Positions 16,059 to 19,043 of a DNA stretch of 46,737 nt are shown piece by piece (within the stretch, counting starts at the first letter, position 1; each line of letters begins with the position of its first letter). Where the stretch lies: positions 7,458 through 54,194 of the forward strand of contig JAYOED010000004.1 of assembly GCA_038106575.1 (NCBI GenBank). Reading direction: 5' to 3'. This DNA is from Burkholderiales bacterium. GTDB lineage: Bacteria > Pseudomonadota > Gammaproteobacteria > Burkholderiales > SG8-41. A program made the position numbers and the translations under genes. The notes beneath the pieces were generated by a model. That model ran no database searches and had not been told where the DNA came from. It saw nothing but the letters and a program-made list of their open reading frames with translations.

Positions 16059-16403
16059 TCAGTGAAGGGTAGTGTTTTCTGTGGCCACGCGCTGCGTCAG
16101 GTTGAGTAGCATCACGCGACAGCCGATCATGACGATGCCGCCCTTGATGCGATTGTCACCGGTGTCGGTGAATTCAAAATCGTAAGCGCGTTGTAATTGC
16201 AACCGCCCCGCGGCGTTGCGAGCAGGTTTGATGTGGGTAATACCGACGGTGTCGTCGAGAAACAGCACACCTTCGGTGGCGCAGGCTGAATGCGCAGCGT
16301 TCACTGCGGCTTCACGCGCCTGCATGCTGTCCCACCAAAACCAGGCGATTGCACAAAAGCAGGTGAGGAGCAGGATTTCTGTTAATGGGAACATTGCGTC
16401 CAT
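16059..16403 (-). CDS. DUF3301 family small membrane protein
   Basis: N-terminal TM helix, WWDSMQARE.A, LDDTV, R.Y.FEF.DTGDNR..G. Confidence 0.75.
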   Translation of the reverse strand: MDAMFPLTEILLLTCFCAIAWFWWDSMQAREAAVNAAHSACATEGVLFLDDTVGITHIKPARNAAGRLQLQRAYDFEFTDTGDNRIKGGIVMIGCRVMLLNLTQRVATENTTLH

Positions 16404-16504: not shown

Positions 16505-17542
16505 ATGATCGAACTTAAGTCACGCAAGCACACTGTCGAAGACCTCGGCAGCGCCATTGAATTCTGTTATGCGAACGGCTGGACCGACGGCCTGCCGGTA
16601 ATCCCGCCGACCGCCGAGCGCATCGAGGCGATGCTGGTTGCGGCCAATCTCAAACCGGACCAGCAGTTGTCCTTCATCGAAAACCGCCAGGTTTCTGTGA
16701 CGGCGGAGAAGGTCGCGATCAATGCGGTGATGGCGGGCTGCAAGCCCGAATACATGCCGGTGATCGCGGCTACCGTCGAAGCGCTGGCAGATCCGCTCTA
16801 TGGTTACCATGGTCCGGCAACCAGCACTGGCGGCTCTGCGGTGTTCATGCTTATCAACGGGCCCATCGCAAAAAAAATCGGGCTTAACAGCGGTGACAAC
16901 CTGTTCGGACCGGGATGGCGTGCCAACGCCACCATCGGCCGCGCGATACGACTGGTCATGCGTAACGTGATTGGCACGCTTCCTGGTGAACTCGATCGCA
17001 GTAGTCTCGGTCATGCCGGCAAATACACCTATTGCATTGCTGAAAACGAGGTAGACAGTCCGTGGCCGGCGTTCCATACCACGCGAGGCTTCAAGTCTGA
17101 GCAGAATGCAGTAACCATCTTTGCCGCCTACGCGCCTCACCAGTACTCGAACGGTCTCAGCGCGACACCGGAGGGTGTGCTGGCAACGGCCTGTGCGCAG
17201 ATGCGGGTCTCCGCCGGTACCAACCGCCAGCCGCAGTATGCAATGGTGTTTGCCGGGGAGCACCAGCTGATCATGAAGAACGGCGGCTGGTCGCGCGAAG
17301 ACGTGCAGAAGTACGTATTCGAAAATACGCAGATGAAACAGGCCGACCTGCAGCGCGCGAACATCAAGCCCGGACCGGTGACCGAGGAAACTGAAAAAAC
17401 CCTGCAGCCGCTGGTACACACGCCCCAGGATCTGCTGGTGATTGCGGCCGGTGGCAGGGCCGGCGTACAGTCGTGCTATATCCCGGGCTGGGGCGGCAAG
17501 AACGGTTCGCAGAGCGTGACACGGGAAATCCGGGTTCCATAA
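16505..17542 (+). CDS. Conserved hypothetical protein (GWTDGLPxxPPT type), partner of the UGSC selenoprotein
   Basis: 345-aa ORF with host-like codon usage; motifs GWTDGLPVIPPT, EKVAINAVMAGCKPEY, RANATIGRA, IAENE. Function unknown. Confidence 0.85.
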   Translation: MIELKSRKHTVEDLGSAIEFCYANGWTDGLPVIPPTAERIEAMLVAANLKPDQQLSFIENRQVSVTAEKVAINAVMAGCKPEYMPVIAATVEALADPLYGYHGPATSTGGSAVFMLINGPIAKKIGLNSGDNLFGPGWRANATIGRAIRLVMRNVIGTLPGELDRSSLGHAGKYTYCIAENEVDSPWPAFHTTRGFKSEQNAVTIFAAYAPHQYSNGLSATPEGVLATACAQMRVSAGTNRQPQYAMVFAGEHQLIMKNGGWSREDVQKYVFENTQMKQADLQRANIKPGPVTEETEKTLQPLVHTPQDLLVIAAGGRAGVQSCYIPGWGGKNGSQSVTREIRVP

Positions 17543-17590
17543 AAATATATTTATAAACAAATACTTATGTAACAACAGAAGGAGAGCGAG

Positions 17591-18124
17591 ATGAGTATCC
17601 AGATCTACGATCCCACGACCGAAGTCAGCGGACGGACGATCAAGTTCGTGCCGCGGCCGAAGTCGTTGAAAGGCCTGCGCGTCGGCCTGGTCGACAACAC
17701 CAAGCACAACTCCGACCAGATCCTGCTGCGCATCGCCGGCATCCTCGAAAAAGAGCATGGCGCGAAGGCGCACGTGATCCGCAAGAAGAAAAGCGCGGGG
17801 TCGGCGCCCAGCCCGGAAATGATTGCCGAGTACAAGCAGAATTGTGATGTTGTCGTCGCGGGGGTCGGTGACTGAGGGTCATGCAGCTCGGGCAGTGTGC
17901 TCGACAGCATAGTATTTGAGCAGCAAGGGGTTCCGTCGGCGTCGATTGTGACGCATGTGTTCACGGTGACGGGCAAGGCGATGGCGCGCACCTGGGGCGT
18001 GCCGGATCTAAAATTCCTGGTAATGCCGCATCCGATCGCCAATCTGACGCCGGAGCAGATGGACCAGCGCGCGGCGGAAATCACGCCGCAGGTGGTGGAT
18101 CTGTTGCTGAAGGGGCAGCAGTAG
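17591..18124 (+). CDS. UGSC-family selenoprotein (Sec95 encoded by TGA 17873-17875), 177 aa
   Basis: AAGGAG RBS before ATG 17591. The frame continues through the TGA as VVVAGVGD-U-GSCSSGSVLDSIVFEQQGVP... to TAG 18122-18124. UxxC motif with a SECIS-like hairpin directly downstream. Confidence 0.9.
17882..17925 (+). promoter_or_regulatory. Bacterial SECIS element (in-CDS stem-loop)
   Basis: Hand-folded as TGC-a-GCTCGGG-cag-TGTGCT-[CGAC]-AGCATA-gta-TTTGAGC-a-GCA. The apical loop (17902-17905) begins after a 26-nt spacer from the UGA and has G at its second position. Confidence 0.78.
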
Positions 18125-18149
18125 GCGGACGGTATATCGCAGTCCGAAC

Positions 18150-18174
18150 AAAAGGGGCCAGATGGCCCCTTTTT
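18150..18174. terminator. Intrinsic terminator closing the selenoprotein operon (likely bidirectional)
   Basis: AAAAGGGGCC-agat-GGCCCCTTTTT, between convergent genes. Confidence 0.88.
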
Positions 18175-18224: not shown

Positions 18225-19043
18225 TTAGTGCCGCGCCATTTCGTATAGCGGCATTACCACCGGCAGCAGCGACTGGATTTCGCTGACGCGCTTGGCCCCG
18301 GCAGGGTGGGTGCTGAGGAATTCCGGCGGTGCATTACCGTCGCTGGCCTTGATCATCTTCTGCCACAGCGTGACGCCTGCACGCGGATCGTAGCCCGCGC
18401 GCGCCGAGAGTTCGAGTCCGATGCGGTCGGCTTCCGTTTCGTCCAGACGGCTGAAGCGGGTAGCGATCAGCGCCTCATATGCGGTGTTGGTCAGATTGGT
18501 TGCACCCTGACTGAGCCCAAGCAGCGCCGCGCCGACGCCGATTGCAGTCTGGGCGGCCATGGCCTGCGATACCTGCTCGCGAGAGTGTTCTCGCAGTGCG
18601 TGCGCGATTTCGTGTCCCATCACGATGGCGATTTCGTCATCGCTGAGACTGAGGCGCGTGATCAGGCCAGAGTGGAACATGATCTTGCCCCCGGGCATGC
18701 AGAAGGCATTCAGTTCGTCGCTTTTGATAGTATTGACCTCCCATTTCCAACCCGGTGCATCGGCACGGAAGGCGCGTGTATGCGGGGTGATGCGCACGGC
18801 GATGGCGCGTACGCGCCGGGTCATGGCGGGATCGGTATTCAAAGTGCCTTTTTTCGACGTATCGGCCTTCAGCTTGGTGTAGGCCTGCAAGGCCATGCGG
18901 TTAAGCTGGCTGGAGGACACCAGCAGCAGTTGTTTGCGCTCGGCGCCAACGGCGCCACCGGAAGTGGTCGATTTGCAGCCGGGCAGCGCGGTCAGCGCCA
19001 TGATTGCGAGCACTGCGGCGGAAAAGCGGAATAGGTGGTTCAT
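18225..19043 (-). CDS. M48 family metallopeptidase lipoprotein (LoiP-like)
   Basis: Lipobox LPGC, NAFCMPGGKI, HEIAH zincin motif, ETEAD, EFLSTHP. Confidence 0.92.
   Translation of the reverse strand: MNHLFRFSAAVLAIMALTALPGCKSTTSGGAVGAERKQLLLVSSSQLNRMALQAYTKLKADTSKKGTLNTDPAMTRRVRAIAVRITPHTRAFRADAPGWKWEVNTIKSDELNAFCMPGGKIMFHSGLITRLSLSDDEIAIVMGHEIAHALREHSREQVSQAMAAQTAIGVGAALLGLSQGATNLTNTAYEALIATRFSRLDETEADRIGLELSARAGYDPRAGVTLWQKMIKASDGNAPPEFLSTHPAGAKRVSEIQSLLPVVMPLYEMARH

Follow-up and report, generated by a model that had tools for sequence, protein, structure and literature searches.

A two-gene unit encoding a selenoprotein

The window, that is the whole stretch of 46,737 nucleotides that was analysed, contains two consecutive genes on the forward strand, the first coding for a protein of 345 amino acids (hereafter, the partner) and the second for a small selenoprotein. 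The intergenic distance between the two is 48 nt. The features of the locus are the following:

16059..16403, minus strand: DUF3301 gene, divergent, upstream of the pair
16505..17542, plus strand: 345-aa partner gene (P0002), from the open reading frame and its translation
17580..17585, plus strand: Shine-Dalgarno-like AGGAGA, 5 nt upstream of the selenoprotein ATG, by direct reading
17591..18124, plus strand: 177-aa UGSC family selenoprotein gene (P0001) with the motif U95-G-S-C98, translated with TGA as U
17873..17875, plus strand: in-frame TGA, read as selenocysteine (Sec) residue 95; the frame is continuous only if TGA is a residue
17888..17904, plus strand: SECIS-like hairpin found by folding, 12 nt past the TGA, with a 7-bp stem (UCGGGCA/UGCUCGA) and a GUG loop
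18150..18173, plus strand: intrinsic-terminator-like hairpin and T-run (10-bp stem, 6 GC pairs, loop of 4), between convergent genes
18225..19043, minus strand: M48 peptidase gene, convergent, downstream of the pair

The first-pass annotation had described the pair as a self-contained two-gene unit, and this is borne out by the divergent DUF3301 gene upstream and the terminator-like hairpin downstream. The motifs that it had quoted are also all present: in the 345-aa protein, GWTDGLPVIPPT at residues 25-36, AINAVMAGCKPEY at 71-83, RANATIGRA at 139-147 and AENE at 179-182; in the Sec region of the small protein, once TGA is translated as a residue, U95-G-S-C98, E110-QQ-G-V-P and P146-H-P-I-A-N. 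No signal peptide was apparent by eye at the N-terminus of either P0001 or P0002.

The small protein and the decoding of its UGA codon

P0001 matches PF24696 with 199 bits (E 8e-59, cut-off 25), residues 4-173 lying on profile positions 1-171/172, and NF041046 with 154.4 bits (cut-off 125). By these matches P0001 belongs, over its full length, to the catalogued UGSC family, and the earlier suggestion that it was undescribed has to be abandoned as both curated cut-offs are exceeded. The name "UGSC-containing protein" was given by Zhang and Gladyshev, in the portions of their papers considered here (PMC2398784, PMC1976440), and a fusion of the protein to a domain called "Unknown_1" is reported there (PMC2398784). 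Within the passages considered, the literature naming the family states no function, no link to GrdB and no obligate partner. A search of the UGSC protein against solved structures by sequence returned nothing significant (best E 0.44).

The TGA could be a true stop or an assembly error, in which case the locus would hold two open reading frames of 94 and 82 amino acids and no selenoprotein. Indeed, translation table 11 splits the frame there, and gene callers truncate such genes. Such a reading is extremely improbable, as the UGSC profile match spans the TGA (positions 1-171/172) and the same column is occupied by Cys in place of Sec in homologues. In particular, at least 37 of 39 aligned homologues carry Cys at the Sec position of the U/C-G-S-C column, C98 being invariant, while the 62 complete UGSC matches in metagenome loci have TGA there in 48 cases and Cys in 6. 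The genome itself contains nine UGSC copies, each with exactly one in-frame TGA (9/9) at that place, and a similar hairpin follows it in most of them. The Sec machinery is also complete, with selA (579 bits), selB (433 bits), selD (420 bits) and a tRNA-SeC identified by ARAGORN. As to the SECIS element, the 7-bp hairpin is included in the minimum-energy fold of its 43-nt context, whereas a wider fold of 71 nt has no unusual stability (z -0.90) and an Rfam search of the region gave no family at threshold; the case for a SECIS is thus made by the local hairpin and its recurrence among the paralogues. Taken together, comparison of copies and homologues shows, as far as sequence can tell, that the UGA at residue 95 is decoded as Sec.

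The AlphaFold2 (AF2) model of the UGSC protein (pLDDT 91.4) consists of five parallel beta-alpha units, and its Foldseek matches are flavodoxin-like, CheY, NQO and azoreductase folds, with TM scores of 0.36-0.49. No thioredoxin fold was among the matches listed for this predicted model, and its five-fold beta-alpha parallel sheet differs from the "likely Trx-like" fold proposed in the portion of the UGSC literature considered here (PMC2398784).

A selenocysteine module in common with GrdB

When the UGSC profile was aligned with hhalign to GrdB, the selenoprotein B of glycine/sarcosine/betaine reductase (GrdB/GrdF/GrdH), a match of Prob 88.5% and E 2.7e-6 was obtained over 94 columns, with Sec placed on Sec and PHPIAN on PHPLGN. 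The score of this alignment was 49.3, as compared to 16.3 for the reversed template, a maximum of 25.5 in 100 column shuffles and 16-22 for five unrelated families. The GrdB reference comprised 13 full-length proteins from a single phylum (380-537 bits on PF07355). In the alignment, the Sec-bearing C-terminal stretch of GrdB, of some 100 residues, corresponds to UGSC residues 75-175; E-x-x-G-[IV]-P and P-H-P-[IL]-[GA]-N are common to both, and H147-P148 is conserved in the two families alike. The differences are also clear, in that the invariant second Cys is at U+6 in GrdB and at U+3 in UGSC, and the GrdB body of about 330 residues is absent from the 177-aa UGSC protein. The GRDB Pfam model PF07355 gave no match to the UGSC protein at E<=1, and is blind to the shared module because it ends just upstream of Sec. 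Profile comparison shows the UGSC Sec module to be homologous to the Sec region of GrdB over these roughly 100 residues only.

The first-pass annotation had seen a parallel to both GrdB and PrdB; it stands for the Sec region of GrdB and is weaker for PrdB-like proteins, whose profiles matched UGSC with Prob 38.6-43.8% and scores of 34-36 (0 of 100 shuffles reached 36.3). The latter are selenoproteins that metagenome surveys label "Proline reductase PrdB". They share the layout of UGSC, namely a beta-strand, U/C-x-x-C, a helix, E-x-x-G-I-P and F/H-P-L-G-N, and are short members of the GRDB family, unpaired with proteins of the 345-aa partner family. Their match to GrdB reaches Prob 99.6-100%, which makes them clear GRDB members, whereas UGSC is a distant relative only. 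One PrdB-like selenoprotein (407 aa, U156) is carried by the same genome; searching the PrdB-like protein against solved structures by sequence gave no match.

The partner protein

P0002 has no family match in Pfam or NCBIfam, and no family could be assigned to 52 of its relatives in the same databases, in which only scattered single chance matches were found. The partner family is large, with at least 5130 clusters at 50% identity; the nearest clusters in the ESM Atlas are unnamed or automatically named "Thioredoxin family protein", with no Pfam family, and are taken as a lead only. The conserved residues of the partner are D28, G78-C79, R139, N141, R146, C177, E180 and W187. In particular, among 92 independent sequences R146 and E180 are found in 92/92, D28 in 91/92, C79 in 89/92 and C177 in 87/92, the last two being the only conserved cysteines of the family.

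Two derivations from the Stickland reductases were considered for the partner and rejected. As a split GrdB body it gives a profile Prob of 0.2% with GrdB and of 0.1-0.6% with PrdB-like proteins; as a GrdE-like pyruvoyl subunit it gives 0.3% with GrdE. A kinship of the large subunit with these proteins is not sustained, since all values are below 1%.

Against solved structures, the partner sequence had no significant match (best E 2.1). Its AF2 model (pLDDT 95) has class I (iron-sulfur) fumarate hydratases as best Foldseek matches (E 5.7e-5 to 7e-3), the top one with a probability of 0.99 and yet a TM score of 0.30 and an rmsd of about 15 A; the TM scores to the individual structures (PDB 6uqn, 5l2r, 7xky) are 0.26-0.30. 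There is no likeness in sequence or profile, as 15 class I fumarases of the same order gave Prob 0.1% against the partner profile in hhalign, and fumarate hydratases have three cluster-binding cysteines where the partner has two. The resemblance of the predicted model to fumarate hydratase is a weak lead. It would suit a non-redox hydro-lyase or isomerase, in which a metal or an iron-sulfur cluster is bound by the partner cysteines together with Sec/Cys of UGSC, or these residues act as acid and base, and dicarboxylate-type neighbours (TctC and an Amdase-like gene) point in the same direction. Nevertheless, the low TM score with its large rmsd, the profile result and the presence of just two conserved cysteines all speak against it, and redox turnover is suggested by the disulfide reductases, NADPH- and ferredoxin-dependent, to which the partner is repeatedly fused (see below), so that we regard a hydro-lyase as quite improbable.

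Pairing, fusions and genomic context

The first-pass annotation had proposed a survey of co-occurrence and fusions, and the two families were found both to co-occur and to fuse. All nine UGSC genes of the 2.55-Mb genome adjoin, or are in frame with, a partner paralogue (9/9), the nine pairs having diverged to 33-45% identity. In a sample of 400 genomes of the phylum, UGSC (above cut-off) and the partner are confined to 4 genomes, each of which has both, invariably side by side; the other 396 have neither. The 80 metagenome loci contribute 85 partner genes: for 69 a UGSC gene lies no more than 1 kb away on the same strand, for 8 there is none and 8 are not evaluable. Across these samples, gene order and co-occurrence show an obligate pairing of UGSC and its partner. 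The partner genes lacking UGSC (8/77 evaluable) retain both cysteines, suggesting that in such cases the partner may use another donor or act alone.

Fusions point to the nature of the associated modules. The 120 long partner relatives listed include 80 with PF24696, 21 with thioredoxin reductase (TrxR)-type domains, 16 with no Pfam domain and 3 with other domains, and the fused TrxR parts retain a C-A-x-C-D motif. In 10 forms extended at the N-terminus, the extension is UGSC in 7, a ferredoxin-thioredoxin reductase (FTR)-beta domain in 1 and without a Pfam domain in 2, one showing CPTC and one C-A-D-C. Five of the seven UGSC extensions hold the post-Sec part only, and one of these five scores 24.6 bits, just under the Pfam cut-off of 25 bits. 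A TrxR gene that is fused or adjacent, with UGSC alongside, is found in 4/80 metagenome loci, a count that includes only matches above 250 bits, with a Pfam check in 2 of the 4 loci; the search model carried partner sequence, and matches of 20-65 bits inside partner genes are spurious. No TrxR-type gene was found among the annotated immediate neighbours of the pairs of this genome.

Several of the nine pairs adjoin TctC binding proteins, a CoA-transferase, SDR or PanE-type dehydrogenases and an Amdase-like gene. Clustering of neighbours over 87 loci identified no conserved third gene, none occurring in more than 11 loci, and the commonest recurrent neighbour was an SDR (11/87). Recurrent neighbours being scarce and of diverse kinds, the substrate class can be deduced from them only weakly.

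These data bear on the possibility that the pair is a general thiol/selenol oxidoreductase or antioxidant system, with UGSC acting in a thioredoxin- or peroxiredoxin-like manner and the partner serving as protein scaffold or substrate, with no small molecule involved. The UxxC motif of UGSC would fit this role, as would the fusions of the partner to Trx-like, TrxR and FTR-beta modules, and the literature, in the parts considered here, groups UGSC with redox selenoproteins. However, the divergence of the nine pairs and their catabolic-looking contexts better fit substrate-specific enzymes, the invariant Arg, Asn, Glu and Asp of the partner are typical of a small-molecule site, and the predicted UGSC model is not of the thioredoxin fold. 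A general oxidoreductase or antioxidant function appears unlikely.

A putative two-part reductase

The reading that we favour, and whose chances we consider evenly balanced, is that the products of the pair are the two subunits of a single cytoplasmic enzyme, a dithiol/selenol-driven reductase acting on small organic acids. The small subunit would provide a flavodoxin-like alpha/beta domain with Sec95-x-x-Cys98 predicted at the start of a helix, while the large subunit, with its invariant set of D28, C79, R146, C177 and E180, would bind the substrate. The selenol/thiol pair could then give two electrons to the substrate held by the partner, or attack the substrate directly, and end as a selenenyl-sulfide between Sec95 and Cys98. 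This would be re-reduced by cellular dithiol reductases such as thioredoxin and TrxR, a step that is read alongside the partner fusions to such reductases in other lineages. The nine diverged pairs would probably be substrate-specific isoenzymes for small organic acids. We infer the physical contact of UGSC with the partner, the direction of electron flow, the substrate class and the reaction; the natural fusions of the two proteins support such contact only indirectly. Several results stand against this scheme: a TrxR-type gene lies near the pair in only 4/80 metagenome loci, UGSC is missing near 8/77 evaluable partner genes, the GrdB likeness extends over only some 100 residues, its probability with PrdB-like profiles being under 50%, and the position of the second Cys differs (U+6 in GrdB, U+3 in UGSC).

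A closer relation to the known selenium reductases would make the pair a true Stickland-type reductase, in which a carbonyl (pyruvoyl-like) group of the partner forms a Schiff base with an amine and Sec cleaves a C-N or C-S bond. Glycine reductase is a Sec enzyme tied to dithiol reductants and is thioredoxin-dependent, and by analogy the fusions to redox modules resemble this dependence; the homology of the Sec module with that of GrdB and the retention of H147-P148 in both families are also in its favour. On the other hand, the partner profile is unlike GrdE, the GrdB body and PrdB-like proteins. The partner shows no GrdE-like pyruvoyl cleavage context, its conserved Cys lying in M-A-G-C rather than in the S-G-N-C conserved in GrdE, and nothing pointed to self-processing. 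GrdE lies directly upstream of GrdB in 5/5 control genomes, and in the 95%-complete genome analysed here neither GrdE/PrdA (PF09338) nor GrdA (selenoprotein A, PF04723) was found at E<=1. We hold a genuine Stickland mechanism to be unlikely.

Implications

To our knowledge, anaerobic Stickland fermenters are the only organisms in which Stickland-type selenium chemistry has been described. The host of the present pair is probably aerobic, as a heme-copper oxidase is present in its genome. It is possible, albeit rather doubtful, that UGSC and its partner form a large unrecognised superfamily of two-part selenium/cysteine reductases, with a free-standing GrdB-type Sec module, thioredoxin-type reductants and many substrate-specific copies in aerobic environmental bacteria, reducing dissolved organic acids; the same tentative proposal, taken as one, would make the partner a catalytic subunit with a fold unseen among solved structures. 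Were the reductase reading true, aerobic bacteria of freshwater and soil would possess Stickland-type selenium chemistry in many versions, each specific to its substrate, with a bearing on selenium demand and organic-acid turnover in these environments.

UGSC is an abundant family that has been an orphan for 20 years, and its kinship with GrdB makes the enzyme testable. Indeed, the GrdB anchor points to key residues, namely U95, C98 and H147 in UGSC and C79, C177, R146 and E180 in the partner, while the obligate partner is a candidate for co-expression with UGSC and the likely electron donors are TrxR, Trx-like and FTR-like modules. There is also a consequence for genome annotation, as UGSC and partner genes are split or truncated by gene callers.

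The selenoprotein gene and its partner

The pair consists of the genes for a 345-residue protein (P0002, hereafter the partner) and for the selenoprotein UGSC (P0001), arranged as follows:

16505-17542, + strand: partner gene, ORF of 345 residues
17591-18124, + strand: UGSC gene, open only with TGA readthrough; 177 residues, G-V-G-D-U95-G-S-C98
17873-17875, + strand: in-frame TGA, read as U95
17888-17904, + strand: hairpin 3' of the TGA, 7-bp stem with GUG loop, beginning 12 nt past the TGA
18150-18173: terminator-like hairpin

Every motif quoted for the larger protein in the first-pass annotation is found in the partner ORF, and the pair is bounded as described there, by a divergent gene upstream (DUF3301, with SDR and EamA transporter genes) and by the terminator-like hairpin downstream, where convergent M48 peptidase and ABC-F ATPase genes lie. 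The two genes are separated by 48 nt, with AGGAGA ahead of the UGSC gene, and there is no obvious third component among the flanking genes.

The window's genome (2.55 Mb, 128 contigs, 95% complete, 58% GC) encodes selA, selB, selD and tRNA-Sec. The UGSC profile alignment runs through the TGA position, Cys occupies the Sec column in homologues, and each of the nine UGSC copies in this genome has exactly one in-frame TGA, followed in most of them by a hairpin of the same type. When its local context of 43 nt is folded, the hairpin in the window is part of the minimum-energy structure; the wider 71-nt RNA fold around the TGA is not unusually stable (z -0.90), and an Rfam scan of the TGA region returned no family above threshold. 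Judged from these sequence features, the TGA of the UGSC gene is a selenocysteine codon. Selenophosphate synthetase is probably another selenoprotein, since the selD match (420 bits, G000:C110:980-1909, - strand) has a single TGA in frame. Among public-database gene calls, Sec-containing UGSC genes are present as fragments of 99-134 aa, and Sec-UGSC::partner fusions as proteins of ~415-445 aa that start directly after the Sec codon.

UGSC and the Sec module of GrdB

The small protein had been taken for an undescribed one, but it belongs, over its full length, to the catalogued UGSC family (PF24696, 199 bits; NF041046, 154 bits, cut-off 125). The family is thus already described, its function not: it is listed among selenoproteins of unknown function (PMC1976440), and the relevant passages of reviews from 2022 and 2026 still treat it as uncharacterized. 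An account of the Global Ocean Sampling data places UGSC among the most abundant families, commoner in non-marine samples, and describes it as "likely" thioredoxin-fold and at times fused to a domain named "Unknown_1" (PMC2398784).

The AlphaFold2 model of UGSC (39-sequence alignment, pLDDT 91.4) has five consecutive beta-alpha units, and Sec95 lies at the N-terminal end of helix 3. The Foldseek matches listed from the PDB are flavodoxin-like, CheY, NQO and azoreductase folds (TM 0.36-0.49), and neither thioredoxin nor GrdB/PrdB is among them. The missing PrdB is uninformative, since neither UGSC nor the PrdB-like protein has a sequence relative in the PDB.

The first-pass annotation had likened the Sec region to GrdB and PrdB. 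The Pfam GRDB model (PF07355) gives no match to UGSC at E<=1, but it stops just short of Sec and is therefore blind to this region, so that real family members were gathered for comparison: 13 full-length GrdB-type genes from genomes of another phylum (380-537 bits across the whole model, the first open frame ending at TGA in each, and GrdE directly upstream in 5/5 genomes examined), eight short PrdB-like genes from the same search, and 81 proteobacterial PrdB-like proteins, one of them from the window's genome. Profile-profile alignment places UGSC 75-175 on GrdB 329-427 (Prob 88.5%, E 2.7e-6, 94 columns), in a register that pairs Sec with Sec, E-x-x-G-V-P with E-x-x-G-I-P and P-H-P-I-A-N with P-H-P-L-G-N.

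Profile-profile scores of UGSC against GrdB and controls
GrdB, real: 49.3
GrdB, reversed template: 16.3
GrdB, 100 column shuffles: mean 15.5, maximum 25.5
Five unrelated real families (partner, GrdE, fumarase, two TrxR-containing sets): 16-22

The likeness to GrdB therefore stands with clean controls, while that to the two PrdB-like sets is weaker (Prob 43.8% and 38.6%, scores 36.3 and 33.7, with 0/100 shuffles reaching 36.3). GRDB-family members match one another at Prob 99.6-100%, and the second invariant Cys lies at U+3 in UGSC but at U+6 in GrdB. On these profile comparisons, we conclude that UGSC is a distant homologue of the GrdB Sec module, outside the GRDB family proper. The annotation had gone further and proposed a relative of the Stickland reductases, which in its stricter form implies Schiff-base activation and C-N cleavage; despite the shared Sec module this is unlikely, as the defining carbonyl subunit is missing: neither GrdE/PrdA nor GrdA was detected in the window's genome. 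As to the host, the best-named relatives come from Burkholderiales MAGs, and the genome encodes a heme-copper oxidase subunit I.

The partner family

The partner matches nothing in Pfam or NCBIfam, a consistent family match is likewise lacking among 52 diverse relatives, and no sequence relative was found in the PDB. The family is large, with at least 7992 near-length matches among 8000 candidates scored, "hypothetical" wherever named, and at least 5130 clusters at 50% identity (E<=1e-3). Conservation was read from 52 aligned relatives and then from 92 independent sequences, in which G78, R146 and E180 are each kept in 92/92, D28 and W187 in 91/92, N141 in 90/92, C79 in 89/92 and C177 in 87/92.

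Foldseek matches the partner model (AlphaFold2, pLDDT 95, pTM 0.93) best to fumarate hydratases of the class I iron-sulfur type (E 5.7e-5, prob 0.99), but at TM 0.30 and an rmsd of about 15 A. Comparison of the partner profile with 15 class I fumarases from the same order shows no similarity, and neither do comparisons with GrdE, PrdB-like proteins and the body of GrdB. That the pair represents a non-redox metal or Fe-S enzyme is in our view unlikely.

Pairing, fusions and a candidate function

The survey of co-occurrence and fusions proposed in the annotation found that the two families both co-occur and fuse. UGSC and the partner are each present in nine copies in the window's genome (partner paralogues 33-45% identical to the window's copy), and each UGSC gene adjoins a partner gene (9/9), in both gene orders; two pairs share a single reading frame through the TGA. 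Among 400 genomes of a phylum sample, UGSC is above cut-off in four and the partner occurs in exactly the same four, always adjacent; a fifth genome has no partner and a UGSC-like match that stays below threshold. From metagenomes, 80 loci with 85 partner genes were retrieved with the partner profile: UGSC lies on the same strand within 1 kb of 69 (56 upstream, 13 downstream), eight have a flank under 600 nt and are not judgeable, and eight with adequate flanks have no UGSC nearby. In the 62 complete UGSC matches from these loci, position U95 is Sec in 48, Cys in six and in another motif context in eight.

The eight genes lacking UGSC (L151, L156, L181, L205, L215, L216, L219 and L221) retain C79, C177, R146 and E180, and several of their loci appear to derive from high-GC DNA. 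One partner paralogue in the window's genome (G000:C59:2294-3310, + strand) is possibly a pseudogene, or else affected by a sequencing error: its matched region includes an in-frame TAG. The adjoining UGSC gene looks intact. The complete genome G224, from the phylum sample, has two tandem partner paralogues behind one UGSC gene (G224:C1:4572241-4574632, - strand), an arrangement reminiscent of the fused proteins of ~715 aa, P0123 among them, in which the partner is duplicated in tandem.

The 120 long partner relatives listed divide into 80 with a UGSC domain, 21 with a pyridine-nucleotide-disulfide oxidoreductase (TrxR-type) part, three with other domains and 16 without a Pfam domain; one of the last group, on inspection, is a tandem duplication of the partner. 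The redox-active C-A-x-C-D motif is kept in the TrxR parts inspected, and TrxR-type genes are fused or adjacent at 4/80 metagenome loci, with UGSC beside the partner in each. Ten N-terminally extended forms comprise five with the post-Sec part of UGSC alone, which are thus truncated calls of Sec fusions, two with a whole Cys-UGSC, two without a Pfam domain (one C-P-T-C, one C-A-D-C) and one, P0296 (470 aa; N-terminal PF02943, 76 bits), with a ferredoxin:thioredoxin reductase catalytic-chain domain, which brings the kinds of disulfide-reducing module fused to the partner family to four. The partner fusions point to a putative dithiol relay.

Family membership, Sec decoding, homology to the GrdB module, obligate pairing and the four module fusions lead us to infer, with about even confidence, that UGSC and the partner form a two-subunit reductase with thioredoxin-type recycling. 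A small substrate would be bound by the partner, with R146, N141, E180, D28 and the two conserved cysteines lining the pocket; UGSC would contribute the reducing or nucleophilic step through its Sec/Cys pair, which thioredoxin-type systems would then recycle.

Genomic neighbors

Annotated immediate neighbors in the window's genome include same-strand TctC solute-binding proteins at three pairs, an Amdase-like gene, a family III CoA-transferase, a four-rhodanese protein, an amidohydrolase, LysR and MFS genes, a 6PGDH-type NAD-binding protein and a PanE/ApbA reductase. Across 87 loci no third gene is conserved; the recurrent neighbors are SDR (11), TctC (9), NMT1-like binding protein (7), CoA-transferase (4), crotonase (4), ThDP enzyme (3) and glyoxalase-fold (3) genes. 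These neighbors are weakly compatible with varied small-acid catabolism. A general antioxidant role for the pair seems unlikely to us.

The window's genome also encodes a 407-aa PrdB-like selenoprotein (G000:C120:31987-33207, equal to L025:1252-2472, + strand; PF07355, 33.6 bits) with an in-frame TGA at U156 in the motif V-U-P-N-C and a C-terminal extension of ~200 aa that is absent from four aligned Cys-form relatives; selA and selB lie on the same contig. Just 5' of it, a TGA=U frame (L025:113-1216, + strand) contains the motif G-C-H-Y-U-M-A-H-T, which resembles an AhpD-type CxxU selenoprotein motif.
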